Shown in pieces: positions 165 through 51,954 of a stretch of 64,000 bases of DNA (position 1 is the stretch's first letter; each line of letters begins with the position of its first letter). The stretch spans positions 8,775 through 72,774 of the forward strand of contig JAHITU010000007.1 in the NCBI GenBank assembly GCA_018817595.1, in the 5' to 3' direction. This DNA comes from Patescibacteria group bacterium (lineage in GTDB: Bacteria; Patescibacteriota; Minisyncoccia; Phycocordibacterales; UBA12079). Below the pieces are notes generated by a model. The model did not search any database, was not told where the DNA came from, and saw nothing but the letters and a program-made list of their open reading frames with translations. A program made the translations under genes and the position numbers.

Positions 165-2471
165 ATGTATCTAAAATCTTTAGAAATAGTCGGTTTTAAA
201 TCCTTTGGTAAAAAGGCAAATTTGGAATTCAATTCTGATGTCTCTGCTATTGTGGGACCTAATGGTTCAGGAAAATCAAATGTGGCTGAAGCTTTTCGTT
301 TTGTTTTAGGTGAGCAATCCATTAAATCCATGCGAGGAAAAAGAGGAGAAGACCTAATCTTTAACGGGTCTCAAACAATTCCTCGAGGTAACCGAGCCAG
401 TGTCAAAATAGTTTTTGATAATTCTAAGAGATTTTTGAATCTGGATTTTGATGAAGTAATTATAGAAAGACATGTTCATAGAGATGGAACTAATCAATAT
501 TTTATCAATCGCTCTTCTGTGCGATTAAAAGATGTTTCAGAATTATTGGCAGGGGCTAATATTGGTTCTTCAGGTCATCATATGATTTCACAAGGAGAAG
601 CCGACAGAATTTTGAATGTTAATCCTAAGGAAAGAAGAATGATGATTGAGGAAGCTTTGGGCTTGAAAATCTATCAATATAAAAGAATCGCCAGTGAAAA
701 GAAATTAGACAAGGTTAAAGAAAATATTGATTCTGTGCAGGCTCTGAGAAAAGAAAATGCCCCTCATTTGAAATTCCTGAAAAGACAAATTGGTAAAATG
801 GAAAAGACTTTGGAAATGAGAAAAGAGTTAGGCACCTTATATCGTGAATATTTTAAAAGAGAAAGTGCTTATTTAAAATATTGGAGTGATAAAATCACCA
901 ATGAAAAAAATCCATTAATCGAAAAATTAAAAGATTTAGAACATAGGTCTCAAGAAGCTAAAGCTATTTTGGAAAAATCCCGTGCTGAAGATAAAAGACC
1001 TTTTGAATTAACAGATTTAAAAAACCAGCTGAATTCTCTAAGGAGAGAAAAAGATCAATTTACTTTTAAATTAGGCAGGGTAGAGGGGGTAATTTATGCC
1101 TTAGAGAATAAACCTAAGAAAATAGAAGAGGTTGATAATACAAAGATTTCCTTAAATAAAATTAAAGAATTAGAGTCCGTCATAAACGACCAGATAGAAA
1201 TCGCTTCTAATTTAGAAGAAGTAAACCAAATTAAAGGTATTTTAAATAGAATCAAAGAATCTTTTACTCAATTTATAGTTAAACACTCAATGGCTCAACA
1301 TCCGCCAGCTGGCGGAGAGCTGTTGAATAACGAGATTGATGAAAACTCTAAAAAGATTGAAGAGTTGAAAAATGAAAAGAAGCAAATAGAAGATTCAATA
1401 AAAGAGATAGAAAATAAAGAAGACATTGTTTTAGGGAAATATAACACTCTTAAATCAGAAATAGAACAGGATAAAAACTCAAACCAAGAAGCAGAATTGG
1501 CTGTTTTAGAAATTATGGCTCACCAGACTGAAAGTCGTTCTCAACTAAACTCTCTAGAAATGAAAGAGATTCAAATTGTTTCAGCTCAAGAGAATTATAA
1601 AAAAGAAATGAACGAATCATATATTTTGGCGGGTAGAGATGCTGTGCAATTTAAGGATTTAGATTTACATAATTCTGCAGGAGTAGTTTTGAGCGAGGAA
1701 GAAATTCTGAAAGAAGATAGACAATATCAAAATGAGAGATTGAAAAAAATAGAAAGAATCAAAATTCTTATCGAGGACTCAGGAACTCTTTCTAGTGAAG
1801 ATGTGGTTAAAGAATATGAAGAAGCCTCAAAAAGAGATGAGCACTTATCTAATGAGATTGAAGATTTAGAGAAATCAGCCGAATCATTATTAACTTTGAT
1901 TGAAGAGTTAAAGAAAAAATTAGATATTGAATTCAGAAACGGTTTAGAAAAGATTAATGCTCAATTTAAAGAGTTCTTTATTTTAATGTTTGGAGGAGGA
2001 AGAGCTAATTTAGATTTAGTAAAGGAAAAAGTAACTAGAAAAAAGAAAGACGATTTGAATATGAGTGAGGAAGACTTGGTTAATGAAGTTGAAAACGCAG
2101 ATGGAGAAGACAATGAGATGGGGATTGAAGTAGATGTGTCCTTACCTAATAAAAAAGTAAAAGGTTTACAAATGTTATCAGGCGGGGAGAGGTCTTTGAC
2201 TTCAATTGCTTTGTTGTTTGCTATGTCTCAAGTCACTCCACCCCCCTTTATTATTCTTGATGAAACCGATGCTGCCTTAGATGAAGCCAACTCTAGAAAA
2301 TACGGAGATATGATTGAAAGACTTTCCTCTCATTCACAGTTAATTTTAATTACTCATAATCGAGAAACCATGGCGCGAGCTAATATACTATACGGAGTAA
2401 CCATGGGTTCTGACGGAATCTCAAAATTACTTTCTGTTGAATTTGCCGAAGCAGTAAAGGTAGCAAAATAA
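165..2471 (+). CDS. smc: SMC-like chromosome segregation ATPase (short form)
   Basis: N-terminal Walker A GPNGSGKSN, long coiled-coil middle, C-terminal ABC signature LSGGERSLTSIALLFA and Walker B ILDETDAALD. The ORF opens at 144 but the conserved MYLKSLEIxGFKSF start is at 165. Confidence 0.8.
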   Translation: MYLKSLEIVGFKSFGKKANLEFNSDVSAIVGPNGSGKSNVAEAFRFVLGEQSIKSMRGKRGEDLIFNGSQTIPRGNRASVKIVFDNSKRFLNLDFDEVIIERHVHRDGTNQYFINRSSVRLKDVSELLAGANIGSSGHHMISQGEADRILNVNPKERRMMIEEALGLKIYQYKRIASEKKLDKVKENIDSVQALRKENAPHLKFLKRQIGKMEKTLEMRKELGTLYREYFKRESAYLKYWSDKITNEKNPLIEKLKDLEHRSQEAKAILEKSRAEDKRPFELTDLKNQLNSLRREKDQFTFKLGRVEGVIYALENKPKKIEEVDNTKISLNKIKELESVINDQIEIASNLEEVNQIKGILNRIKESFTQFIVKHSMAQHPPAGGELLNNEIDENSKKIEELKNEKKQIEDSIKEIENKEDIVLGKYNTLKSEIEQDKNSNQEAELAVLEIMAHQTESRSQLNSLEMKEIQIVSAQENYKKEMNESYILAGRDAVQFKDLDLHNSAGVVLSEEEILKEDRQYQNERLKKIERIKILIEDSGTLSSEDVVKEYEEASKRDEHLSNEIEDLEKSAESLLTLIEELKKKLDIEFRNGLEKINAQFKEFFILMFGGGRANLDLVKEKVTRKKKDDLNMSEEDLVNEVENADGEDNEMGIEVDVSLPNKKVKGLQMLSGGERSLTSIALLFAMSQVTPPPFIILDETDAALDEANSRKYGDMIERLSSHSQLILITHNRETMARANILYGVTMGSDGISKLLSVEFAEAVKVAK

Positions 2472-2526
2472 TTTTCAAAAATTTATTTATTATTATTAAA
2501 TAATAATAAATAAAATAATCAATTAA

Positions 2527-2564
2527 ATTATATTATACGATTATATATAATCGTATAATATAAT
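2527..2564. promoter_or_regulatory. perfect palindrome ATTATATTATACGATTATATATAATCGTATAATATAAT upstream of the ArsR paralog; putative operator
   Basis: Dyad symmetry checked base by base. The 30-bp core recurs exactly at 2903-2932, downstream of the gene. Confidence 0.5.
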
Positions 2565-2598
2565 AAATAATAATTATTAAAATAATAAATAAATTAGT

Positions 2599-2892
2599 AT
2601 GAAATTTACAGGGAAACAAATAAAATTGCTAGAGCTTTTTTCAAAAGCTCTAGCAAACAAAAATAGAATTAAAATTTTAATTTTAATAAATGAAAAACCG
2701 AAACTAAATGTGGTGAGTATAGCTGATAATTTAAAAATGAATTATCAATCAGTAGCTGTTCACACTCAGAGATTAGAAAAGGTAGGTTTTATACATAAAA
2801 GATATAAAGGTTTGTTAATGGAACATATAATTACTGAAAGAGGAAAACATTTTTTGATTTCATTTCAAAAAGTTTTAAATCTAAAATCTTAA
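2599..2892 (+). CDS. ArsR/SmtB-family winged-HTH transcriptional regulator (paralog 1)
   Basis: 97 aa, HTH core like the second paralog at 28340-28633. Flanked by two copies of a perfect 30-bp palindrome. Confidence 0.7.
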   Translation: MKFTGKQIKLLELFSKALANKNRIKILILINEKPKLNVVSIADNLKMNYQSVAVHTQRLEKVGFIHKRYKGLLMEHIITERGKHFLISFQKVLNLKS

Positions 2893-2902
2893 CATAAGTA
2901 TT

Positions 2903-2932
2903 TATTATACGATTATATATAATCGTATAATA
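2903..2932. promoter_or_regulatory. second copy of the 30-bp palindrome TATTATACGATTATATATAATCGTATAATA
   Basis: Exact repeat of the core at 2531-2560. Confidence 0.5.
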
Positions 2933-3069
2933 GGTTTTTCAATAAATTTAAAAAACAAAGAAACAAATCTAATATTTTTTCAATTGTATTTATGGTTTTT
3001 TTATGATATTTTGAGGGTCAGGATGTTATTTAACTATTTTGAGTAAAAAACTTATAAAGGAGGTCAAGA

Positions 3070-3564
3070 ATGACCAATAACACATGTAGTGACGCAGGAA
3101 AAAAGGCAGGAGTGATTCGCGAGCTTTCAACTATAAATTCTCTGGATGAAAGAAGAACCAATATTCTTTTAGCTTTGATTAAGTATATCAAAGCCGGTTA
3201 TCCCATGGAAAATGGAAAAACATGGAAAAGGTTTTTTGGAAAGATCAGAGAGTGTTGGTTTTCTGAAAATCCTCTTAAAGTTTGGAAAAAACTTCTCACT
3301 AGCTCCAATTTCAAAAAATTGGATATCTGTGAAAGAAGACTTGTTCAGGAATCTTCACCTTTTGCTGATTGTTTCTTTATTTCTGTGGGGGATACTGTAG
3401 AGGGTTCAGCTCTAAGAGAAAATCTTCTCTGTTTTGCTGAACCTATTCTTGTTGAAGAAGTGAACGGTCACGGGAATAAACATTGCAATTTGAACGAATT
3501 GGTTTTTGTTGTTTCTGAAGATAATTTTGAAGGGAGTTTTTTAAATGTTACTCTTTTCATTTAA
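3070..3564 (+). CDS. hypothetical Cys-containing protein
   Basis: 164-aa ORF with strong RBS AAAGGAGGTCAAGAATG. No family recognised. Confidence 0.5.
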   Translation: MTNNTCSDAGKKAGVIRELSTINSLDERRTNILLALIKYIKAGYPMENGKTWKRFFGKIRECWFSENPLKVWKKLLTSSNFKKLDICERRLVQESSPFADCFFISVGDTVEGSALRENLLCFAEPILVEEVNGHGNKHCNLNELVFVVSEDNFEGSFLNVTLFI

Positions 3565-3575
3565 GTTTTTAGTCA

Positions 3576-3620
3576 AAAAGCACTGGTTACCGTTGTTACG
3601 GAACCAGTGCTTTTTATTTT
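3576..3620. terminator. bidirectional rho-independent terminator hairpin between the 3070 gene and rnr
   Basis: GCACTGGTTACCG...CGGAACCAGTGC stem followed by a T-run. Confidence 0.6.
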
Positions 3621-3626
3621 ATATTT

Positions 3627-5618
3627 TTATTCTGAAATCAATTCAAAATCGATTACTTGTTTGTCTAAATCAGTTTTGACTAATTTTACTCTAACCTTGT
3701 CTCCTAGGGTATGCTTTACCCTTGTTTTTTGTCCCACTAGGCGATAATGCTTAGTATCTAATTCATAGTAATCATCCTGAAGAGAACGAACACTAATCAT
3801 TCCTTCAGCTCCGTTTTCTGCTTGGACATACACACCCCATTTTGTAATTCCAGAAATAATTCCTTCGAATTCCTGACCAATTTTACTCGACATTAACTCT
3901 GTGAACTTATATTTCGTAGAAGCTCTTTCGGCTGTTACGGCTGCAATTTCTTGTTGAGTGGATTTGCTGGTTAATTCTTTGTATTTTTTAATAGAACGAG
4001 GAGAAAGATTTTTCCCTGCTAAATAATTTTTCATCAAACGATGCACCATCATATCAGGGTAACGACGAATAGGTGAAGTGAAGTGAGTATAATGTTTGAA
4101 TCCTAAACCAAAATGCCCAATATTTTGAGTCGAGTAAATTGCCTTTGCCATTGATTTAAGCATAGCCGTAGCAATCAAATCTTCTTCTGGCAAACCTTCA
4201 ATTTTCATTAATAAATCATTCAATTCTTTTGAAGAAACTTTATTATCTTTGATTTTTAAATTGAATCCAATAGTTTTTAGGAACTCTGACAATTCTTTCA
4301 ATTGTTCTGTTTTAGGTACATCGTGAATTCTATAAACAAAAGGTAATTGAATCTTCAGTTTTTCTTCTTGATGACTTATATATTGGGCTACTTCGCGATT
4401 AGCTAAAAGCATAAAGTCTTCAATTAACTCATTAGTATCCATCATTTGCTTTTCGTAAACATCAATAGCCTTTCCGGTTTTGTCCAAAATAAATTTGTAT
4501 TCGTTTGATCCAAAGGAAATAGAACCTTTTTCGGTTCTGTCAGCTCGGAGAATTAGAGCCAATTCATTCAAGGTATTTAATTCCTTATAGAATTCACCAG
4601 CTTTATTATCCAAGGTTTCTTGAGCATTTTTGTAGGTGAATCTTTTGTCAGAATGAATAATAGTTTCTCCAAACCATCTAGCTTTTACTTGTGCATTTTT
4701 ATCTATTATGAAAACAGCAGAATAAGTCAATTTGTCTTCATTAGGATTAAGAGAACATAGGTTATTAGAAAGCACTTCAGGAAGCATCGGAATCGTACGG
4801 TCTATTAGATAAACAGAGGTACATCTAACAGTAGCTTCACGGTCTATTGGGGAGTCAATAGGAACATAGTGGGTTACATCAGCGATATGAACTCCAATTT
4901 CATAATCCCCATTTTCTAATTCTTTGAACGATAAAGCATCATCAAAATCCTTGGCGTCATCAGGGTCGATAGTAAAAGTAATTCTGTCTCGCATATCCTT
5001 TCTCTTAGGAATTTCTTGAGCGAAGTCTTTTAGAGCTTGTTTGGATATAACTTCGGCTTCAGCTTCGACACCTTCTGGAAAATCAGGTTCAAAACCTTTT
5101 TCATAAAGAATAGCTTGCATTTCAGTTTCATTGTCACCCTTATGTCCGATTACTTTAATTATTTTTCCTTGAGGATTTTTCTTTGGGTCATTCCATTCAG
5201 ACATTTCAGCTACGATTTTTACATCATGGCTGGGGATTTCTCCATCACTAAGGTCTAGGTCTAAACGGGGGTAAAATTTAATATCATCGGCAACTAAAAA
5301 ATAACCTTCATTATCTTTTCCTAAGGTTCCTACAAATTTAGTTTTAACTCTGTTTAATATTTCAGTAACTTTGGCTATTTTAGTCCCTGCCTGCCGAGAG
5401 GCATGGTTTCCTCTTTTAGCTACTTTGATTTTTACTATATCTCCATTTAGAGCAGTATTCAAATCAAAGTCAGAAATTTCAAAATCTCCGTGTTCGGTTT
5501 TCAAGAAACCACGCTTTCTTGTGGTTACTATAATATTACCTTCATAAAATTCTTGCTCTTTATCTTGAGATTTTTTATGTTTCTTTTCATATGTCTTGTT
5601 TTTCTTCATACCCCACAT
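3627..5618 (-). CDS. rnr: ribonuclease R (RNB-domain 3'-5' exoribonuclease with C-terminal S1 domain)
   Basis: 663 aa. RNB catalytic core and a C-terminal S1-like segment GIISGITKWGVYVQ...GMISVRSL. Confidence 0.85.
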   Translation of the reverse strand: MWGMKKNKTYEKKHKKSQDKEQEFYEGNIIVTTRKRGFLKTEHGDFEISDFDLNTALNGDIVKIKVAKRGNHASRQAGTKIAKVTEILNRVKTKFVGTLGKDNEGYFLVADDIKFYPRLDLDLSDGEIPSHDVKIVAEMSEWNDPKKNPQGKIIKVIGHKGDNETEMQAILYEKGFEPDFPEGVEAEAEVISKQALKDFAQEIPKRKDMRDRITFTIDPDDAKDFDDALSFKELENGDYEIGVHIADVTHYVPIDSPIDREATVRCTSVYLIDRTIPMLPEVLSNNLCSLNPNEDKLTYSAVFIIDKNAQVKARWFGETIIHSDKRFTYKNAQETLDNKAGEFYKELNTLNELALILRADRTEKGSISFGSNEYKFILDKTGKAIDVYEKQMMDTNELIEDFMLLANREVAQYISHQEEKLKIQLPFVYRIHDVPKTEQLKELSEFLKTIGFNLKIKDNKVSSKELNDLLMKIEGLPEEDLIATAMLKSMAKAIYSTQNIGHFGLGFKHYTHFTSPIRRYPDMMVHRLMKNYLAGKNLSPRSIKKYKELTSKSTQQEIAAVTAERASTKYKFTELMSSKIGQEFEGIISGITKWGVYVQAENGAEGMISVRSLQDDYYELDTKHYRLVGQKTRVKHTLGDKVRVKLVKTDLDKQVIDFELISE

Positions 5619-7777: not shown

Positions 7778-7945
7778 GAATTAAGATTTAAGATTTAGGA
7801 ATTAAAAATAATGAAGAAAAATTTGCGACTAAAACATTTTAAAAAATGTTCGTCCAACCAAAACTGTGTTTTGGTTTAGGAAGCAAATTCTTCTTCAAAA
7901 AGCTAACACCTAATCCGCCAGCTGGCGGACTAAACAACTAATAAA

Positions 7946-8278: not shown

Positions 8279-10012
8279 ATGAAAAAATCAAGTTTTTTAT
8301 TTAGAATAAAATTTTTGTATGCAGGTTTATTCCTGTTTTTCTTTATTTTAGTTGGTCAATTATATATGATTCAAATAGTTAAGGGTGATGAATATAGTGA
8401 AAAAGCCGACAATCAATATATTAAACCTCAGTATATTTTCAATCGAGGAAATATTTATTTTGAAGATAAAAATGGAAAAAGAATTTCTGCTGCTATGACT
8501 CGCTCAGGTTTCCAATTAACTATTAATCCTTCTTTGATTGAGGATGCAGAAGGCACCTTTAACAAATTATCTCAAATAATAGAAATAGACAAAGAAGACT
8601 TTATGTATCGAGCTGGGAAAAAAGATGATACTTATGAGGTAATAAAAAGACAAATTATAGACGATAAAATATCAAAACAAATAAAAGATTTAAAATTAAA
8701 AGGGGTTACTCTTGAATTAGATAAGTGGCGTTTCTACCCAGGAGATAAATTAGCTTCTCATGTTTTAGGTTTTGTTGGTTACAACGAAGATTCTCTTGAA
8801 GGAATTTATGGAGTGGAAAAATATTATAATTATATATTAAACAGAGAATCAAAAAATCTTTTTGTGAACTTTTTTGCAGAGATTTTTTTGAATGTGAATT
8901 CTGTTATTGATGGAGACGACTCAAAAAAAGAAGGAGATATTGTTTTAACTATAGAACCTACTGTGCAAGAATACTTAGAAACTACATTAGAAGACTTGGA
9001 AGAAAAATGGAGTACTGATTTGGCAGGTGGAATTATAATAGACCCCAATAACGGAGAAATAATCGCTATGGGTTTTTCTCCTTCTTTTGATCCAAATAAT
9101 TTTTCTAAAGCTAAAGATGGAGTGCTTTTTGGAAATCCTATGGTGGAATCTGTATATGAAATGGGTTCTATTATTAAAGCCTTGACCATGGCTATTGGTT
9201 TAGACACTGGTGTGGTTACTGCAGAGACCACCTACAATGACACTGGTTTTAAAACCTTGAATGGAAAGACTTTTTATAATTATGATGGAAAAGCCAGAGG
9301 GGTGGTTCCTATGCAAGAAGTTCTAAATCAGTCTTTGAATATTGGCGCAGCCTTTGTCGAAAACAAAATAGGAAATGAAAGATTTGCAAAATACCTTTTG
9401 GATTTAGGTATCGGGGAAGAAACGGGAATTGATTTACCTAATGAAACTTATGGTTTGGTTTCTAATTTAGAATCCACTCGAGATATTGAATATGCTACTG
9501 CGTCATTTGGACAAGGAATAGCTATGACTCCAATAGAGACAGTTAAAGCTTTATCAGCTTTGGCTAATGGAGGAGTCCTAATAACTCCGCATTTAGTTAA
9601 AGAAATAAAATATAGTGTTTTATCTTCTGATGAAATATCGTATGATGATAATGAAAGGATTTTTAAAGAAGAGACTTCTGATGAAATCAGTCGAATGTTA
9701 GTTCAGGTTGTGGATGAAGCATTGTTAGGAGGAACAGTAAAATCTGAAGATTATACTATCGCCGCTAAGACAGGAACCGCTCAGATGGCAAAGGAAGACG
9801 GAAGAGGGTATTATGATGATAAGTATCTACACAGTTTTTTCGGCTATTTCCCAGCTACTCGTCCTGAGTTTTTAACATTTTTATATGTTGTGGACCCAAA
9901 GAATGTAAATTATGCCTCTCATACTTTAACACAGCCCTTTATGGACATTTTTAAATTTTTAGTTAATTATTATGAAGTGGTACCCGACAGAGTCGGAGTC
10001 GAAAGTCTGTAA
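8279..10012 (+). CDS. ftsI: penicillin-binding protein 2/3 transpeptidase (FtsI-like)
   Basis: SXXK (SIIKAL), SFGQG and KTGTA motifs. N-terminal TM. Confidence 0.85.
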   Translation: MKKSSFLFRIKFLYAGLFLFFFILVGQLYMIQIVKGDEYSEKADNQYIKPQYIFNRGNIYFEDKNGKRISAAMTRSGFQLTINPSLIEDAEGTFNKLSQIIEIDKEDFMYRAGKKDDTYEVIKRQIIDDKISKQIKDLKLKGVTLELDKWRFYPGDKLASHVLGFVGYNEDSLEGIYGVEKYYNYILNRESKNLFVNFFAEIFLNVNSVIDGDDSKKEGDIVLTIEPTVQEYLETTLEDLEEKWSTDLAGGIIIDPNNGEIIAMGFSPSFDPNNFSKAKDGVLFGNPMVESVYEMGSIIKALTMAIGLDTGVVTAETTYNDTGFKTLNGKTFYNYDGKARGVVPMQEVLNQSLNIGAAFVENKIGNERFAKYLLDLGIGEETGIDLPNETYGLVSNLESTRDIEYATASFGQGIAMTPIETVKALSALANGGVLITPHLVKEIKYSVLSSDEISYDDNERIFKEETSDEISRMLVQVVDEALLGGTVKSEDYTIAAKTGTAQMAKEDGRGYYDDKYLHSFFGYFPATRPEFLTFLYVVDPKNVNYASHTLTQPFMDIFKFLVNYYEVVPDRVGVESL

Positions 10013-11729: not shown

Positions 11730-11961
11730 AAATGATTAGGGGTCGTTCCTCTTAATAAAGATAATTGTAATCTTTAGGCAAAAATTAAAAAGCTAAGATA
11801 ACCGAGGTGCGACCCCTAATTTAAATTTTAAATTATGAAGTCCGATTTCTGTCTGCCCCTGCGCGCCGGCAGGCGTGGGCATAGGCAGGGGTTGGGGTGT
11901 TCAAATGGCTAAAACCTTAATAATAAATAGCCCAACCGGTTGGGCTATTTAATTTACTTCA

Positions 11962-12001
11962 ATTTCTATTATAGTATTATGCATAATACTATAATAGAAA
12001 T
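11962..12001. repeat. perfect 40-bp AT-rich palindrome ...TTTCTATTATAGTATTATGCATAATACTATAATAGAAA...
   Basis: Dyad symmetry verified. Shares the TTATGCATAA core with the palindromes flanking the ArsR paralog at 28340. Confidence 0.5.
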
Positions 12002-12293
12002 AGAAATATAAAAACAAAAACCGCTCAAACAAAACTGAGCGGTTTTTGTTTGAGCGGGTTATCTTGTCACGATTATTTTTTTGCCGTGTATATGGTATAT
12101 TTCCTTATTTATTTTTCCACCACTTAGCCCTGTTCTGTGCTTTGTCTTTATAAATCCATCTTGTTGGGGTAAGTTTTCTTTCGGTACTTTATTTTTTTCT
12201 TCTTTTTTCGAATCCTTTTCCATTTTGAACCTCTTTTTTTATAGATTAACAACTATAATCAGTATATAATTTTTTATACTTTTGTAAAGTGAT

Positions 12294-13160: not shown

Positions 13161-13338
13161 TGAATATATTTTAACATATTATATCCCACCTCTTTTTATT
13201 TTATTTGTTGATAAATGCCATACTAGTCCAATCGATTGGAATATTCCAATCGATTGGACTATTTTTTTGTTTATTATTTTGTTTACTTTTTTAATTTTAA
13301 TATTTCTGCTAATATTATAGTAACGCACAACCTCATAA

Positions 13339-25298: not shown

Positions 25299-25463
25299 TA
25301 GAATAGTACAATGAGTCGAAAGTCTATAAAGCCTGCCTGCCGGCAGGCAGGTCCGTAAAGTCAAAAGTTATGAATTTTACTTTGTAAAATTCATTTTTGT
25401 CTGACGGCAAGTAATGGTTATAAAAAATTTTTTATATTAATAATTTAATAAAATATAAATAGT

Positions 25464-27232: not shown

Positions 27233-27784
27233 ATGTCTAAAAATAATAGGAATGGATTCTATGGATTATGTCCAGCCTGTATGTCTCGTGGCATTTTTAC
27301 TATCAATAAATTAGTTAAGCAACCTATTTTTCCTCCAAAATTTTACGGAAAAAATAAACCTTTTTTGTTTGTTTGCACAAGGTGTGCTAAAGAATTAAAT
27401 TTAATTTTAAACGAAAAGAAAAATAATGTTAAACATACTTATGATTTAACTAAAAAATTTGTTCGGGGAGGACTTTTTAATATTCCTTGGCTAAAGGGTA
27501 AAAATAGCAAGGGGAGAATAGGAAATATTTGTTCTCGATGTTTTAACGCAGGAATAATTCAAAAACACCATGTTCTTCCAATGGAACATTTTGGAAACAA
27601 TCAGTTTGTTTTATATATAGACAAAGATTGTCACGAATTAATTACTAGGGTAATAAATTCAATAGGAAAAATATCAGAAGAACAATATTTTGAACTGCAT
27701 AGAATATTTTTAATTGAAAAATCAGAAAAAGTTCTTTTTGAAACTGCTTCTAGAATGGAAAGAGAGAATTCTATTGCTGCTTAA
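27233..27784 (+). CDS. zinc-ribbon + HNH-like nuclease domain protein
   Basis: CPAC...CTRC zinc ribbon at the N-terminus. C-terminal CSRCFNAGIIQKHHVLPMEHFGNNQFVLYIDKDCH resembles the HNH CxxC...HH...N...CH motif. Strong RBS GAGAGGAGG. Confidence 0.5.
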   Translation: MSKNNRNGFYGLCPACMSRGIFTINKLVKQPIFPPKFYGKNKPFLFVCTRCAKELNLILNEKKNNVKHTYDLTKKFVRGGLFNIPWLKGKNSKGRIGNICSRCFNAGIIQKHHVLPMEHFGNNQFVLYIDKDCHELITRVINSIGKISEEQYFELHRIFLIEKSEKVLFETASRMERENSIAA

Positions 27785-28263
27785 ATTAACTCTTCAACAA
27801 CCTTTTTAACCAAAGCGCCGTCGACGTCTTCGCCGGTGCTTTTTATTTGTCCTAGTATTGCCCCGATTAAAATTCCCGCTCCTGCCTTGCCGGCAGGCAG
27901 GTTAGTTGCATCTTCTATACCTAATTCTGCTTTTTTAGCAATAGCTATTTCTCTTATTTTTTCTTCACTCATCATTTCAGGTAGGTATTTTTCTAGAATT
28001 TCTAGTTCTGCTTTTTCACTCGCCACTAAATCTTCTCGACCACCTTTTCCATATTGTTCAATAGAATCTTTTCTTTGCTTAACAGCCTTTTTAATTACAT
28101 TTAAAGCGTCTTTATCTTCAATAGGTTCTTGAGGTTTCTTACCTAAAGATATTAATTCATTAGTAAAACCAGCGATAAGACTTTTTAAAACCATTAATCT
28201 AACCTCTTCACGATTTTTCATGGCTTCTTTTAACTCCTCTCTTATTTTTTCTTGTATTTTCAT
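27781..28263 (-). CDS. yqeY: GatB/YqeY domain protein
   Basis: 160 aa with the YqeY-like helical fold (MKNREEVRLMVLKSL...). Confidence 0.75.
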   Translation of the reverse strand: MKIQEKIREELKEAMKNREEVRLMVLKSLIAGFTNELISLGKKPQEPIEDKDALNVIKKAVKQRKDSIEQYGKGGREDLVASEKAELEILEKYLPEMMSEEKIREIAIAKKAELGIEDATNLPAGKAGAGILIGAILGQIKSTGEDVDGALVKKVVEELI

Positions 28264-28294: not shown

Positions 28295-28322
28295 ATTATG
28301 TTATTATGCATAATAACATAAT
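28295..28322. promoter_or_regulatory. perfect 28-bp palindrome ATTATGTTATTATGCATAATAACATAAT (downstream side of ArsR paralog 2)
   Basis: Exact second copy at 28672-28699, inside the 48-bp near-perfect palindrome 28662-28709. Confidence 0.5.
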
Positions 28323-28339: not shown

Positions 28340-28633
28340 TTATTCTTTTAAATTTAAAATTTTTTCAAAAGAAAGTAAAAAGTGTATACCTTTTTTTGTA
28401 ATTATATGCTCCACAGCAAGTCCATTATATCTTTTATATATAAGACCAACTTTTTCTAATCTTTGAATATGAACAGCTCCTGTTGAGTAATTTATTTTTA
28501 AAATATTTAGAATTTCTTCGACATTTAATTTAGGTTTTTGATTAATAAGAATTAAAATTCTTATTCTTGTTTTGTTGGCAGTAGCTTTTGAAAATAACTC
28601 CAATAATTTTATTTGTTTCCCTGTGAAATTCAT
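28340..28633 (-). CDS. ArsR/SmtB-family winged-HTH transcriptional regulator (paralog 2)
   Basis: 97 aa, paralog of the 2599-2892 product. Divergent from the P-type ATPase gene. Confidence 0.7.
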   Translation of the reverse strand: MNFTGKQIKLLELFSKATANKTRIRILILINQKPKLNVEEILNILKINYSTGAVHIQRLEKVGLIYKRYNGLAVEHIITKKGIHFLLSFEKILNLKE

Positions 28634-28661: not shown

Positions 28662-28709
28662 AATATTAACAATTATGTTATTATGCATAATAACATAATA
28701 GTTAATATT
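28662..28709. promoter_or_regulatory. 48-bp near-perfect palindrome in the divergent ArsR/P-type ATPase intergenic region; putative operator
   Basis: AATATTAAC-A-ATTATGTTATTATGCATAATAACATAAT-A-GTTAATATT with one central-arm mismatch. Confidence 0.5.
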
Positions 28710-28797: not shown

Positions 28798-31416
28798 ATG
28801 ATAAATTCACAACAAATTTGGTATGGTCTTAATCAAAAGGATTTAGAAGAAAAACTAGATTCTGATATGGATAATGGATTATCAAATGAGCAGGTTTTTG
28901 AAAACCGCAGGAAATACGGTAAGAATGTTTTGTCCAAAAAAACTGAAATAGGTATTTTAAGAAAAATATTTAACAGTTTAAAAAGTCCTCTTAATCTTAT
29001 TTTAATAATTGCGGGGGCCACAGCTTTCTTTTTAGGTTCTACTGTGGATGCCTCTGTTGTATTTTTTGCTGTAATTATAAATGTGGTTGTAGGAATAATA
29101 CAGGAAGACAAGGCGGATAAAGCTTTTGAAAAATTAAATGTAGCTCAACATAAAAGTGCTACTGTAATCAGAGAAGGAAAACAAAAAGTTATTTCTGCCA
29201 AAGATTTAGTTCTTGGAGATTTAGTTATTCTCAGGGCTGGAATGTATATTCCCGCTGATATCCGTTTAATAGAAGATAAAGATCTCTTAGCTAACGAATC
29301 AGTTTTGACTGGAGAATGGATGGGTGTTATCAAAAAATCAGATATTTTAGAAGACAAGGATTTACCTTTAACTAGTCAAACTAATATGTTGTGGATGGGA
29401 ACTGTAGTTTCTGCTGGTTACGGAAAAGGTTTGGTTGTTAAAATTGGTAAAGATACTGAATTGGGGAAAATTTCAAAATCACTTTCTGATTATGAAAGGA
29501 TTACGCCGATGAAAAGAAAAATGGATAGACTGGTTCGCTTTTTGATGATAACTGTTTTGTCTGCTACGGCTGTGATTTTTATCCTAGGGGTTGCTAAAGG
29601 GGAGTCTTATGTTGATATGCTTCTTATTGCTATCGCTGTTGCAATTGCAGTTATACCTGAAGGTTTACCTATTGCTACCACTTCTGTTTTAGCAGTAGGA
29701 ATGAAAGAAATATTAAAAAAAGGAGGTTTGGTGAAAAATCTTTTAGCTTCAGAGACACTAGGAAATGTTTCTGTTATTTTAACTGATAAGACTGGAACTA
29801 TTACAGAAGCCAAGATGAAATTAGCTGAGGTTATAACCTTAACAAACTCTAAAGAAGATAATCACGAAGCCTTAAAAAAAGGGGTATTGAGTTCAGATGC
29901 TTTTGTTGAAGTAGGAAGAAAATCAGAAGTCATTGTACAAGGACGCCCCTTAGAGAAAGCCATAGTTTCAGCAGGTTTAGAAGCAGGAATTTCTCAAAGT
30001 GAACTAGAAACAGAAAATAAAAGACTAGATTTATTATTATTTTCTTCAAAAAATGGATATGCAATTTCCTTAAATAAACTTGAGGGAGATAAACGCAGGG
30101 AATACATTGGGGGACGTCCAGAAAGGATTTTAGAAAAGTCTAAATATATTTTTGAAAATGGAAATAAAAGAGAAATCACTGAAAAAGATAAAAAGTATTT
30201 TTTACAAATTTTAACTGAAAAAACTGATTTAGGTATGAGATTAACAGCTCAAGCTTATAGAGATGTCAAAAAAGATAAAATACTTGATGAATCTCTAGAA
30301 AATTTAGTCTTTGTGGCTTTATTTGCTTTTGATGATCCTGTTAGAAAAGGGGTAAAGGAATCTATTGAAACTACTAAAAAGTTAGGAGTGAGAACTATTA
30401 TGTTAACAGGGGATTATGCAGGAACTGCTAGAAATATTGCTGAGGAAGTTGGTATTATAGAAAAGGGAGGAAGGGTATTAAGAGGAGAGGATATTGATAA
30501 AATGAATGATGAAGAATTAGAAGAAGTATTAAAAGAAGTAAATGCTTTTGCTCGAATGGATCCTAGTCAAAAATTGCGAATTTCTAAGAAATTAAAAGCT
30601 ATGGGAGAAATCATTGCTATGACTGGGGACGGAATAAATGATGCTCCTGCTCTAAGAAATGCTGATGTGGGTATGGCCGTGGAATCAGGCACAGAAGTAG
30701 CTAAGGAATCGGCTGATTTGATTCTCTTAGATAATTCTTTTTCGGTTATAGTCTTTGCAGTAGAGGAAGGTAGAAGAATTATTGATAATTTGAAAAAAAT
30801 TACTGCTTATCTTTTATCCACTTCTTTTTCAGAAGTTTTCATTGTAGCCGGTTCTTTGTTTTTTGGTTTACCTTTACCTATTTTAGCTTCTCAAATTTTG
30901 TGGATAAATATTATTGAAGAAGGTTTTATGAATTTTGCCTTTGTCTTTGAACCAAAAGAGGTTTATTTAAAAAGTAAAAAAGACAGAACTCATAATGTTG
31001 AAATCTTAACCCCTCGTTTGAGAAATATGATAACAATGATTGCAGTGATTACAGGTTCATTTTTGATAGTTTTCTATTATATTTTGATAAAATTAGAATT
31101 ACCTATGGATGAAATTCGCACTATTATGTTTGTAGCTCTTTCTATTGATTCTTTGTTTTTTGCCCTTTCTCTTAAATCATTACATAAGCCTATTTGGAAG
31201 ATAAATATTTTTTCAAATAAATATTTGATAATTTCTTGGGTTTTGAGCTTGTCTCTTATTTTAGCAGGTATCTATGTGCCTTTCTTGCAATTTATTTTGC
31301 ATACAGTCCCATTAAATATTTTTGACTTTTGGATTATGATTTTACTCGGAATTTTCAACCTAGCATTAATTGAAGGAGCTAAATATATATTTTTTGAGAA
31401 AGGAAATAACTCATAA
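28798..31416 (+). CDS. P-type cation-transporting ATPase (P2-type, Ca2+/Mg2+-like)
   Basis: Phosphorylation site DKTGTITE, hinge MTGDGINDAPAL, N-terminal cation-ATPase domain, 10 TM helices. Confidence 0.85.
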   Translation: MINSQQIWYGLNQKDLEEKLDSDMDNGLSNEQVFENRRKYGKNVLSKKTEIGILRKIFNSLKSPLNLILIIAGATAFFLGSTVDASVVFFAVIINVVVGIIQEDKADKAFEKLNVAQHKSATVIREGKQKVISAKDLVLGDLVILRAGMYIPADIRLIEDKDLLANESVLTGEWMGVIKKSDILEDKDLPLTSQTNMLWMGTVVSAGYGKGLVVKIGKDTELGKISKSLSDYERITPMKRKMDRLVRFLMITVLSATAVIFILGVAKGESYVDMLLIAIAVAIAVIPEGLPIATTSVLAVGMKEILKKGGLVKNLLASETLGNVSVILTDKTGTITEAKMKLAEVITLTNSKEDNHEALKKGVLSSDAFVEVGRKSEVIVQGRPLEKAIVSAGLEAGISQSELETENKRLDLLLFSSKNGYAISLNKLEGDKRREYIGGRPERILEKSKYIFENGNKREITEKDKKYFLQILTEKTDLGMRLTAQAYRDVKKDKILDESLENLVFVALFAFDDPVRKGVKESIETTKKLGVRTIMLTGDYAGTARNIAEEVGIIEKGGRVLRGEDIDKMNDEELEEVLKEVNAFARMDPSQKLRISKKLKAMGEIIAMTGDGINDAPALRNADVGMAVESGTEVAKESADLILLDNSFSVIVFAVEEGRRIIDNLKKITAYLLSTSFSEVFIVAGSLFFGLPLPILASQILWINIIEEGFMNFAFVFEPKEVYLKSKKDRTHNVEILTPRLRNMITMIAVITGSFLIVFYYILIKLELPMDEIRTIMFVALSIDSLFFALSLKSLHKPIWKINIFSNKYLIISWVLSLSLILAGIYVPFLQFILHTVPLNIFDFWIMILLGIFNLALIEGAKYIFFEKGNNS

Positions 31417-31497: not shown

Positions 31498-32478
31498 TTA
31501 GTCTTTATCTTCAGGTTTCCAACCGTCCATTTCTTGGATCCTTTCGGTTTGTGCCTTTAAGGATTTCAAAGCTTCTTCCATCGTAGTCATCAATTCTGTG
31601 AATGTCGTTTTTTGGCTATGAAGAGATTCAGCTGTTTCGTTCTCAATAAATTTGATTTCAGTACCAAGACTTTTACAGATACGAATGACAGCTCTCATGG
31701 TTTGTTCTGTCGATGAAAGTTGTCTTTTCTGACCGCCTCTTCTAGAACGTCTTTTAATTCCGTGTTTTTCAGCAGCGGCTGTGAAAATTCTATTTAGAAA
31801 ATTTGGATGAAGCTTAATTGTTTCAGCCTTTTTTCCTAATTCCTCGGCTTTATCTTTACGGACTTCTAACCACAGATCATACATCATATCTTGATGATTT
31901 TCTTTAAAAGCAGCAATCATTAGAGCGATTCCATTATCAAGTTCCTCTGTTATAACCTTTTTTCTTAGAGATTCTTTTAGACGTAAAAGTTTAAGAGTAT
32001 TGCTTACAAACCCTTGGCTAAAACCAGAAACTTCTGCTACTTCGGATTGGTTTAAATTATAATCTTTCATTAATTGTTCAAAACCAATTGCAATTTCCAT
32101 TAAGGACATATCTGTCCTTTGTGTATTTGCTATAAAGCTTCTTTTATATACTTCTTTGTCTTCCATTTGGGGTTTGATAAGGCAAGAAATTTTAGTAAAG
32201 TTGTTTATCTTTGCTCCTCTAAAACGACATTCTCCATCAATAATCAGAACAAAACCATCACGTACGGTTACATTAATAGGAATTTCAACATCCCCTGCAT
32301 CCTTCATAGAATTTGCTTTCTTTTGCAGTTCACTTAACTTGAATTCTTTTCGGGGTTGCTCAGAGTTCCTTTTAATTAACCGAATTGGTATTTCAACAAC
32401 CATCCCTGGTTTGAGAGAATCTAAAAATTTCTGATCTTCTCTTCTCTGTTTTTCTGTATTTATTGCCACGACATTCAT
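31498..32478 (-). CDS. ParB/Spo0J-like nuclease-domain + HTH protein (no adjacent ParA)
   Basis: ParB N-domain (IRLIKRNSEQPRK ... DGECRFRGA) and HTH (SQSEVAEVSGFSQGFVSN). Start set at the internal Met with a GGAG RBS. Confidence 0.7.
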   Translation of the reverse strand: MNVVAINTEKQRREDQKFLDSLKPGMVVEIPIRLIKRNSEQPRKEFKLSELQKKANSMKDAGDVEIPINVTVRDGFVLIIDGECRFRGAKINNFTKISCLIKPQMEDKEVYKRSFIANTQRTDMSLMEIAIGFEQLMKDYNLNQSEVAEVSGFSQGFVSNTLKLLRLKESLRKKVITEELDNGIALMIAAFKENHQDMMYDLWLEVRKDKAEELGKKAETIKLHPNFLNRIFTAAAEKHGIKRRSRRGGQKRQLSSTEQTMRAVIRICKSLGTEIKFIENETAESLHSQKTTFTELMTTMEEALKSLKAQTERIQEMDGWKPEDKD

Positions 32479-32611
32479 TTTTATCTCCTTTAAATTCGTT
32501 AAAAATATATTTATCAAAATTACTTCCAAAAGTAATTATTACTCACTTTCTACCTTAGATAATAGTTTAAATATTTTTATTGTCAATTAATTTTTATGGT
32601 ATAATGGTTTT

Positions 32612-40961: not shown

Positions 40962-41032
40962 CGAGTCGAAAGTCAAAAGTCCATAACCTGCCTGCCGGCA
41001 GGCAGGAGTCGAAAGTTAAAAAATTTTAATTT

Positions 41033-51112: not shown

Positions 51113-51748
51113 ATGTTAGTTTTTATTGATGAATCCGGAGATCCAGGATTAAAAATGAATAGCGGTTCAAGTCGGTTTTTTACTATTGCTTTGGTAGTAT
51201 TTGAAGATTATGATGAGGCTACTAATTGTGATAGAAGAATTGAATTATTAAAGAAAGAATTAAGTTGGAGTGATAATTCAGAATTTCATTTTAAGAAAAA
51301 CTCTTTAAGAGTTAGGGATTCGTTTTTTAAAGCTGTTATGCCTTATAATTTTTTCTATTATGGTATTGTCATAAACAAAGATCCTAACAAACTTTATGGA
51401 GAAGGTTTCAAGAATAAATCTTCTTTTTATAAATATGCATGTAGTCTTGTTTTTGAGAATGCAAAAGATAAATTAAGTAAATCAATTGTTGTTATAGATA
51501 AAAATGGAAATAATGAATTTCGTAATCAATTAGCTAAATATTTAAGAAGAAAGATGAACATTGATAAAAAGAAGATTAGAAAAGTTAAGATGCAGAAATC
51601 TGAATCCAACAATTTGTTACAGTTGGTTGATTATGTTGCTGGGGCAATAAATAGATCTATTGTTAACTCAAGAAAAGATTCTCAGGTTTTTAGAAAAATG
51701 CTTAGTCGTAAAGAAATGTATGTTCAAGTGTGGCCAAAAAAAGAATAA
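51113..51748 (+). CDS. DUF3800 family protein
   Basis: N-terminal MLVFIDESGD and C-terminal LQLVDYVAGAI motifs, both characteristic of DUF3800. Confidence 0.65.
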   Translation: MLVFIDESGDPGLKMNSGSSRFFTIALVVFEDYDEATNCDRRIELLKKELSWSDNSEFHFKKNSLRVRDSFFKAVMPYNFFYYGIVINKDPNKLYGEGFKNKSSFYKYACSLVFENAKDKLSKSIVVIDKNGNNEFRNQLAKYLRRKMNIDKKKIRKVKMQKSESNNLLQLVDYVAGAINRSIVNSRKDSQVFRKMLSRKEMYVQVWPKKE

Positions 51749-51954
51749 AAGAAAACCACCGAACCTATCCTTGCGGAACGCAGTGATAAACACTACAGTT
51801 TGGTTCGGTGGCACTTCCTTAATTGAAACTATAACATTTTATATCAAAAAATCAAGTAAACTGTGGATAACTAAAACATTGTAAATAAAATTTAAATTAG
51901 CTCTAAAAGAGCAGAACGGCTCAACGACTTGAGCTATTTAAAATAAATGAAAAT

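Follow-up and report, generated by a model that had tools for sequence, protein, structure and literature searches.

A Patescibacteria group bacterium (GenBank assembly GCA_018817595.1, contig JAHITU010000007.1) carries, within a stretch of 64,000 nucleotides (positions 8,775 to 72,774; hereafter the window), two paralogous genes for small winged-helix regulators, each bracketed by two copies of its own AT-rich palindrome, or dyad. A fifth dyad, an orphan, lies elsewhere in the window. From comparisons of sequence across related genomes, we consider it probable that the two proteins are autoregulated repressors whose operator specificities have diverged and whose operators are located at both ends of their own genes. 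This reading is built on a motif that recurs around homologous regulator genes and varies with the protein that it flanks.

The dyads of the window are variants of one 28-bp motif

All five dyads in the window (Table 1) share a single 28-bp motif, ATTAT-N3-ATTAT-NN-ATAAT-N3-ATAAT (13-2-13). Dyad A brackets paralog 1, dyad B brackets paralog 2, and dyad C is the orphan; the three vary solely in N3 (ACG, GTT, and AGT, respectively) and in the center (AT, GC, and GC). The upstream dyad A core reads ATTAT-ACG-ATTAT-AT-ATAAT-CGT-ATAAT, with two TATAAT hexamers per strand, and the dyad B core reads ATTAT-GTT-ATTAT-GC-ATAAT-AAC-ATAAT. As read from the sequence, outward-facing TATAAT or CATAAT hexamers are present on both strands of each dyad.

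These dyads are not products of chance. A search of the window with the pattern ATTATNNNATTATNNATAATNNNATAAT, allowing up to 2 mismatches, returned 5 matches, all of them exact, where 0 were expected from 100 shuffles. The half-site ATTATNNNATTAT occurs 10 times in the window (1.3 expected), always within the five dyads. Perfect palindrome arms measure 14-20 in the dyads, and the longest arm in first-order Markov shuffles of the window was 10. The G+C content of the window is 31%, and because the shuffles gave no arm above 10, AT-richness is insufficient to explain the dyads.

The ATG of paralog 1 follows the end of the upstream dyad A core by 39 nt. Downstream dyad A lies 11 nt after the paralog 1 stop codon, is followed by GGTTTTTC, and is positioned 138 nt upstream of an open reading frame (ORF) at 3070-3564. 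Upstream dyad B is 38 nt from the ATG of paralog 2 and 98 nt from the ATG of a divergent ATPase gene. The initial annotation of this DNA had described the dyad pairs around both regulators and the orphan palindrome, and the coordinates and sequences check out, including the perfect 38-bp extension of upstream dyad A. The 48-bp palindrome that it placed between paralog 2 and the ATPase gene is present but imperfect, with one mismatched pair (28671/28700). It had also judged the dyads to be far longer than typical operators of ArsR/SmtB proteins. The classic SmtB/ArsR operator is a 12-2-12 site of 26 bp at or near promoters (PMC8790569), compared with 28 bp for the conserved 13-2-13 core, and only locus-specific extensions reach 38-48 bp; the claim of exceptional length does not hold for the core.

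The Mur ligase and dprA genes on either side of dyad C are convergent, and two terminator-like hairpins (11924-11951 and 12012-12051) enclose the dyad. The 38-mer first quoted for it corresponds to 11963-12000. Its description as a related palindrome without a neighboring regulator was borne out by tblastn, in which all 29 family proteins matched only the two known genes in the window, with no regulator gene or pseudogene beside the orphan; the fuller picture is that all three types are variants of one motif. The remaining 7.4 kb of the contig contain no additional dyad, and the 71 kb examined include no cognate regulator of the orphan subtype. The spacer upstream of the orphan dyad (11730-11960) is AT-rich except for a GC-rich stretch (~11840-11905), which has no Rfam match at the gathering score. 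Public annotation calls a 54-aa ORF nearby, at 12059-12223(-).

The motif brackets homologous regulator genes

The presence of a site adjoining a regulator's own gene is a standard signature in comparative genomics for assigning sites to regulators. We examined the genomic context of 27 distinct homologs (P-numbers denote homolog proteins and L-numbers the genomic loci compared), and both flanks could be assessed in 25. The regulator gene was bracketed by the 28-bp motif in 24 of these 25 loci, down to ~35% protein identity. The upstream copy of the bracket ends 6-85 nt before the ATG, and the downstream copy starts anywhere from 27 nt before the end of the stop codon to ~100 nt past it. The centers of the bracketing dyads are 281-457 bp apart, with no phasing to the helical repeat, and the two flanking copies are usually identical within one locus. 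The expectation in the initial annotation that the palindromes are tied to regulators, with each paralog having its own variant, is upheld by this bracketing and by protein similarity, which tracks the dyad class.

The position of the dyads relative to the gene depends on the homolog. Homologs of the Nomurabacteria type (91-95 aa) have an upstream dyad that stops 6-7 nt short of the ATG, a spacing that fits a leaderless geometry with the -10 element within the dyad. In short homologs (78-95 aa), the downstream dyad overlaps the last nine codons (Table 1), so that the palindrome encodes the C-terminus of the protein (IMTLCRML*, IIKLLRII*, IITLCKML*). The core of orphan dyad C is identical to that of the dyad bracketing P0008 (L003, GCA_900089805.1) and P0018 (L134), and a six-bp symmetric extension (ATTTCT...AGAAAT) is common to the orphan and L003.

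Some loci contain additional copies. L001 contains a dyad array (3707-4397) in which five copies precede the regulator and two follow it, with a 42-bp tandem duplication at 3835-3917, and L142 contains seven dyads within 3.6 kb (796-4401). L005 is a short contig whose first 76 bp (positions 1-76) form a perfect palindrome centered on dyad C; we set this palindrome aside as a probable fold-back artifact of assembly.

Regulator sequence and dyad center show suggestive covariation

Among 11 close homologs, protein identity was 80.1% within a dyad-center class and 75.4% between classes (permutation P = 0.003). Sharing a genomic slot had no effect (77.5% versus 77.5%, P = 0.44). We used the permutation test for the class effect in place of a weakly supported neighbor-joining (NJ) tree. 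Of the alignment columns, residue 51 (N-terminus of the recognition helix) alone fully separates the classes, being Ser in proteins with AT-centered dyads and Thr in those with GC-centered dyads. The pairing of residue 51 with the dyad center is suggestive of a specificity determinant.

Copies of the motif are dispersed between genes in related genomes

A scan for the pattern in one genome per GTDB species gave at least 111 stretches with matches; of those listed, 61 were taken, from record titles and gene content, as Patescibacteria-type metagenome-assembled genomes. Individual genomes carry many copies: CAZAKQ01 has at least 13 dyads, JALVDV01 at least 14, and WGDO01 at least 8. Among the matches listed, Patescibacteria loci hold 75 dyads, of which 60 are in loci without a family member and 69 (92%) are intergenic, where intergenic bases make up 16.5% by crude ORF calls. 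The N3 consensus is genome-specific: GAT in JALVDV01 and WGDO01, GAC in MFTJ01, and GTA.GC in JBDRMF01, with AAC.AT also seen. Genomes of the window's clade carry multiple dyad types together with multiple paralogs, and the relative CAZAKQ01 contains exact dyads A and B as orphans.

Many dispersed dyads are located 2-120 nt upstream of gene starts. The genes that start just after orphan dyads include mnmA, miaA (twice), yqeY, and those for a P2 ATPase, a PIF1 helicase, a release factor, and GluRS, as well as methionine aminopeptidase (Map), an M16 peptidase, and MazF. On the evidence of these positions, the dispersed intergenic dyads look like a regulon. The initial annotation had supposed that palindromes scattered at random, without association to regulators, would be generic AT-rich hairpin repeats. 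Many dyads do lie away from regulators, as such a scatter would have it, but their distribution is not random, being concentrated between genes with a consensus particular to each genome, and they are not generic hairpins.

We considered a heat-shock regulon, since ~540-aa neighbors suggested GroEL, and rejected it; these neighbors proved to be PIF1 helicases, Mur ligases, and an unassigned family, and GroEL was found upstream of a dyad once. Separately, the 28-mer ATTATTTAATTATTAATAATTAAATAAT is identical in five cyanobacterial loci (L036, L062, L076, L092, and L096; Trichodesmium, Dapis, and others). Although it matches the pattern searched for, this 28-mer seems to represent a repeat family unrelated to the dyads.

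The regulators belong to a Patescibacteria winged-helix family

Paralogs 1 and 2 are 72% identical. Both gave marginal Pfam matches to winged-helix models (HTH_24, MarR, and HTH_5). For HTH_5, paralog 2 scored 26.7 and paralog 1 scored 19.2 (cutoff 22), with the MarR and HTH_24 models scoring equally well; the MarR scores of 26.7 and 27.4 (cutoff 24.6) cover only the helix-turn-helix, residues 20-68. The NCBIfam ArsR/SmtB model NF033788 gave 35 bits for both paralogs, under its cutoff of 55, and NCBI names one paralog ArsR and the other MarR. The designation of the pair as ArsR-family in the initial annotation holds at the level of the fold only. Membership of the MarR family was rejected, as the paralogs have 97 aa versus ~140-150 aa in MarR proteins, whose winged helix is framed by an N- and C-terminal helical dimerization domain, and Foldseek covers <50% of the MarR/SlyA targets (TMt 0.45-0.50).

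An AlphaFold 2 model built from 23 homologs had a predicted local distance difference test (pLDDT) score of 93. It comprises helices at residues 5-32, 38-45, and 49-61, strands at 65-70 and 73-78 that form the wing, and a C-terminal helix at 80-94. The nearest PDB structures by sequence or fold are HlyU, SmtB, CzrA, SlyA, and archaeal AspA. HlyU is the best PDB sequence match (E ~1e-5), and the SdpR autorepressor family is among the NCBIfam matches, under the cutoff.

The close family is small, and all of its members are from Patescibacteria. A profile search of 1.84 billion representatives yielded 277 clusters at 50% identity with E<=1e-10, nearly all of ~90-100 aa. The paralogs belong to an uncharacterized winged-helix family of Patescibacteria (Paceibacteria class) with an ArsR/SmtB-like or AspA-like fold. 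The viral contigs searched contain no homolog of the family, and an origin from a phage or mobile element was rejected on that basis.

Genes around the regulators of the window

The upstream and downstream dyads of the window face several genes (Table 1). The P2-type ATPase divergent from paralog 2 is a candidate target of upstream dyad B, and the yqeY-like gene is a candidate target of downstream dyad B. We infer that the ORF at 3070-3564 is a candidate target of downstream dyad A. Both the regulator-yqeY order and the regulator-ATPase order are kept in L001 and L048. Linkage to the ATPase is just one of at least 3-4 gene neighborhoods of the regulator family; those of close homologs are ATPase/yqeY, transketolase/mnmA, and SMC/RNase R. 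A ParB-like gene (31498-32529) is located beyond the ATPase gene, and no ParA gene adjoins the regulators.

Table 1. Dyads, regulators, and neighboring genes in the window, and downstream dyads that overlap gene ends in homologous loci
Feature	Coordinates	Strand	Description
Dyad A, upstream copy	2527-2564		Perfect 38-bp palindrome; 30-bp TATTATACGATTATATATAATCGTATAATA at 2531-2560; core 2532-2559
Paralog 1 (P0001)	2599-2892	+	97-aa winged-helix protein; AT-center class; recognition helix NYQSVAVHTQRLEKVG; no Cys
Dyad A, downstream copy	2903-2932		TATTATACGATTATATATAATCGTATAATA; perfect 30-bp palindrome
164-aa ORF	3070-3564	+	Strong AAGGAGG ribosome-binding site; no family match
Dyad C (orphan)	11962-12001		Perfect 40-bp palindrome; core ATTAT-AGT-ATTAT-GC-ATAAT-ACT-ATAAT
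yqeY-like gene	27781-28263	-	Start codon 31 nt from downstream dyad B
Dyad B, downstream copy	28295-28322		ATTATGTTATTATGCATAATAACATAAT; perfect 28-bp palindrome; 17 nt after paralog 2 stop codon
Paralog 2 (P0017)	28340-28633	-	97-aa winged-helix protein; GC-center class; recognition helix NYSTGAVHIQRLEKVG; no Cys
Dyad B, upstream copy	28662-28709		ATTATGTTATTATGCATAATAACATAAT core at 28672-28699, in 48-bp palindrome
P2-type cation ATPase	28798-31416	+	Divergent from paralog 2; Cation_ATPase_N and Cation_ATPase_C domains
Downstream dyad overlapping gene end, L042	7245-7272
Downstream dyad overlapping gene end, L069	4441-4468
Downstream dyad overlapping gene end, L091
Downstream dyad overlapping gene end, L104	3275-3302
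Downstream dyad overlapping gene end, L146	~800-827

A proposed model of autoregulation with operators at both gene ends

In the reading that we favor, each paralog would bind the 13-2-13 dyad of four ATTAT pentamers, most likely as a homodimer; alternatively, a pair of dimers may occupy each dyad, as SmtB does on 12-2-12 sites. Since the -10-like TATAAT/CATAAT hexamers face outward on both strands, a bound protein would block transcription that starts at or crosses the site, and the occurrence of such hexamers in every dyad favors a repressor bound over the -10 region. The upstream copy would mediate negative autoregulation of the regulator gene, and upstream dyad B would also control the divergent P2-type ATPase gene. 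The downstream copy may control or insulate the next unit, which is yqeY for paralog 2 and the 164-aa ORF for paralog 1. A loop of ~280-460 bp around the regulator gene may allow cooperation between the two copies.

Following duplication, the paralog lineages are predicted to have diverged, with Ser51 paired with AT-center dyads and Thr51 with GC-center dyads. The orphan dyad would be the operator of a third subtype, whose cognate regulator is bracketed in related genomes. Autoregulation had been among the suggestions of the initial annotation, and the paralog-specific dyads, together with the match of Ser or Thr at residue 51 to AT or GC centers, appear to fit cognate operators. The regulators contain no metal site or ligand domain.

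Several observations weigh against this reading. In a sigma-70 consensus scan, -35/-10 promoters that make use of the dyad hexamers did not exceed chance, and the dyads were accordingly rejected as standard sigma-70 promoters. Palindromic symmetry often extends past the core with copy-specific sequence, which pure protein recognition does not predict. Beyond the downstream dyad at L009 and L132, the next gene is that for RNase R in convergent orientation, and the orphan in the window, between convergent genes and two terminators, has no obvious target. The seven dyads of L001 differ in N3; therefore, N3 is not a strict specificity determinant. The covariation sample consists of 11 related sequences, and the topology of the NJ tree agrees with the dyad classes with bootstrap support of just 43-55%, which is why we grade the covariation as suggestive. 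Another protein could also be the binder of the dyads.

Alternative explanations

The alternative that survives best, although we regard it as rather unlikely, is a recombining cassette, of the kind also suggested by the initial annotation, in which the dyad-gene-dyad unit moves among dyad sites: recombination between the two flanking direct copies would excise the gene with one dyad and leave a solo dyad, and re-integration at another solo dyad would restore the bracket. Such a cassette is compatible with an operator role. It would be consistent with the finding that the same three slots (ATPase/yqeY, transketolase/mnmA, and SMC/RNase R) hold either protein class in different genomes and that similarity tracks the dyad class, and with the identity of most flanking copies within a locus. 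In addition, mnmA in L123 and miaA in L026 are preceded by a solo dyad at the place that a bracketed gene occupies in other genomes, exact dyads A and B are orphaned in CAZAKQ01, and the bracket is retained at L009, where the following gene is convergent. However, the unit lacks an associated recombinase, the viral contigs searched yielded no homolog, and phylogenetic support is weak, with the occupancy of the slots equally explained by differential loss of ancient paralogs. Neither was a close pair of genomes with a filled and an empty site found; L123 and L006 share only ~70% DNA identity. The orphan was rejected as a deletion scar; its symmetric flanks (ATTTCT...AGAAAT) match the upstream-type copy in L003 and are not the hybrid that a deletion would leave.

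A specific form of this idea, that the repressor relocates among its own operator sites by recombination between dyads and without a transposase, seems to us unlikely. If true, it would explain the near-universal bracket, even inside the last codons of short homologs, as well as the identical copies per locus, the solo dyads at matching slots, and a lineage that follows dyad type over slot.

The dyads might instead be structural repeats to which the regulator does not bind, either hairpins or cruciforms resembling repetitive extragenic palindromes (REPs) with an effect on termination or on the ends or stability of mRNA, or products of palindrome-perfecting mutation. The free energies of predicted RNA hairpins (-9.7 to -20.4 kcal/mol; z-scores as low as -8.5) agree with this, as do the many copies a few nt after stop codons and the orphan between convergent genes. 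Symmetry also extends beyond the core by a mean of 2.25 bp versus 0.69 in controls, significantly so within core types, and long perfect palindromes of several other families occur between genes in the clade. We nevertheless consider structural repeats quite unlikely. The four fixed pentamers are conserved in sequence, beyond what pairing requires, across distant Patescibacteria lineages, the dyad variants are genome-specific and covary with the protein, and the motif is tied to one protein family in 24 of 25 loci. T-runs are inconsistent after the dyads; among the window dyads, only downstream dyad A is followed by a T5 run. A role as intrinsic terminators was rejected, since the scan called no dyad as a terminator and the terminator-like sites that it called in the regions covered are GC-rich hairpins. 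At L009, the downstream dyad lies between the stop codon and a distinct GC-rich hairpin with a T-run, which serves as that locus's own terminator-like site. Moreover, the true unit of REPs and a REP-associated tyrosine transposase (RAYT) in this group looks different, with a Y1 transposase and GC-rich hairpins (L123).

The initial annotation had itself proposed a metal-responsive switch, in which a metal-sensing ArsR/SmtB protein, paralog 2, controls the divergent ATPase gene, as in ZiaR/ZiaA or CadC/CadA. In its favor, both the fold and the best family matches are ArsR/SmtB-like, a 12-2-12-like dyad lies between divergent regulator and P-type ATPase genes, and this gene order is kept in L001 and L048. 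We find the proposal very doubtful. The paralogs lack Cys, and the family alignment contains no conserved Cys. Neither paralog has the alpha3N Cys motif (ELCVCDL type; CXC in alpha3) or the alpha5 D/H-x-H...H-x2-E ligand pattern. The only invariant His residues of the family are H55, in the recognition helix, and H76, in the wing, and their positions suggest that they are not metal ligands. The NCBIfam score is 35 bits against a cutoff of 55, and the ATPase best matches the Ca types PMR1 and SERCA, not the P1B heavy-metal pumps. Most family members adjoin mnmA, miaA, RNase R, or PIF1 genes rather than transporters, the ATPase being found at only one of the neighborhoods.

Finally, a centromere or nucleoid role, with AspA-like spreading or bridging on the dyads in place of gene-specific repression, is highly improbable: pNOB8 AspA is the best local superposition (root mean square deviation 0.8-1.6 A over 71-76 columns) and among the top sequence matches, and dyads occur in clusters (7 in L001 and 7 in L142) and at non-promoter positions, but no parA or parB partner adjoins the regulators (the ParB-like gene lies beyond the ATPase gene), copies are scattered singly over chromosomes, mostly just upstream of gene starts, and the paralog-specific variants argue for specific recognition.

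Other palindromes and repeats

The window contains palindromes of other sequence. A perfect 38-bp palindrome, TAGTCCAATCGATTGGAATATTCCAATCGATTGGACTA, lies at 13224-13261 in the spacer between the divergent dprA and serS genes and consists of two copies of CCAATCGATTGG. The 12-mer CCAATCGATTGG also occurs 20-70 bp from ATTAT dyads in CAZAKQ01 (L019:3699 and 3750; L034:7693), with the copy at L034:7693 lying inside a perfect 42-bp palindrome. The TAGTCCAATCGATTGGAATATTCCAATCGATTGGACTA palindrome may be the operator of a second regulator.

The GC-rich palindrome CCTGCCTGCCGGCAGGCAGG is identical at positions 25332-25351 and 40987-41006 of the window and at L001:3489, L003:1607, and L003:5949. Its copies are downstream of genes, with short AAGTC-type repeats alongside, and it resembles a family of REP-like or terminator repeats common to related genomes. 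A further palindrome, TCCGCCAGCTGGCGGA, occurs twice in the window (1301-1316 and 7914-7929), one copy being within an SMC ORF, and is also present in L003, L038, L064, and L097. Apart from palindromes, an Rfam match to DUF3800-IX RNA (47 bits) was detected at 51751-51812(-), directly after a DUF3800-like ORF (51113-51748).

Significance and comparison with known systems

No description of this regulator-dyad system was found in the literature searched. Because the genomes of Patescibacteria (candidate phyla radiation) are tiny and the organisms largely uncultured, the family and its 28-bp site offer a testable entry into regulation in this group. The dispersed sites lie upstream of housekeeping or translation-linked genes (mnmA, miaA, yqeY, release factor, and GluRS). 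If the reading of autoregulated repressors is correct, the two paralogs would be a compact natural case of repressors diverging in operator specificity, with Ser/Thr51 as the candidate residue paired with the central base pair. An operator conserved at both ends of a regulator's own gene would be unusual.

The SmtB/ArsR repressors (SmtB, CzrA, ZiaR-ZiaA, and AzuR) resemble the regulators described here in being winged-helix proteins of ~100 aa with the same helix-wing-helix order, and in having a palindromic operator (12-2-12, versus 13-2-13 here) at or near promoters; autoregulation, which we predict here, would be a further likeness. As with ziaR/ziaA, paralog 2 has a divergent P-type ATPase gene. 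In contrast to these repressors, the regulators here have no metal-ligand residues and score under the curated threshold, and the ATPase is a Ca-type P2 pump. The SmtB/ArsR operator is an imperfect repeat with a TGAACA-type consensus, whereas the dyads here are perfect, with AT-only pentamers of different sequence, and are found at both ends of the regulator gene (inside the last codons in short homologs) and dispersed genome-wide. HlyU, SdpR, and other ArsR-like regulators that do not sense metal share the ArsR fold and are the best PDB match or among the NCBIfam matches. HlyU senses redox through Cys, which the regulators here lack. To our knowledge, no bracketing operators have been described for any of these non-metal regulators.

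AspA of the Sulfolobus plasmid pNOB8 is likewise a minimal winged helix with a C-terminal helix, and it binds a palindrome upstream of its own gene. Unlike the regulators here, whose sites are dispersed, paired, and paralog-specific, AspA acts together with ParB and ParA, spreading outward from a single site. The aspA-parB-parA operon context is absent; the neighbors are yqeY/ATPase, SMC/RNase R, and transketolase/mnmA, with no adjacent ParA gene. The looping repressors GalR (OE/OI), LacI (O1/O2/O3), and lambda CI (OL/OR), which act between operators on either side of a promoter or gene, offer a functional analogy only, in that two identical operators are 281-457 bp apart here around the controlled unit; those proteins are unrelated, the putative loop would enclose the whole regulator gene, and the spacing is not helically phased.

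In REP/RAYT units (REPtrons), copies of a palindrome also flank a gene and recur between genes. The flanked gene here encodes a 97-aa winged-helix protein, with only winged-helix Pfam matches, and not an HUH Y1 transposase. In the transketolase-mnmA slot of L123, a 231-aa Y1_Tnp gene (IS200/RAYT-like; 3585-4280) is flanked by two hairpins rich in GC, TCCGGAGGTCCGACCTCCGGA and GGGAGGTTGAACCTCCGG, and between this gene and mnmA is a solo ATTAT dyad. This unit looks like a genuine REP/RAYT-type element, in contrast to the regulator bracket. Collectively, these comparisons place the regulators with the ArsR/SmtB-like proteins in kind, but they lack a sensor site, and their putative operators are built from four all-AT pentamers, lie at both ends of the gene, vary with the paralog, and recur across the genome as a dispersed regulon would.

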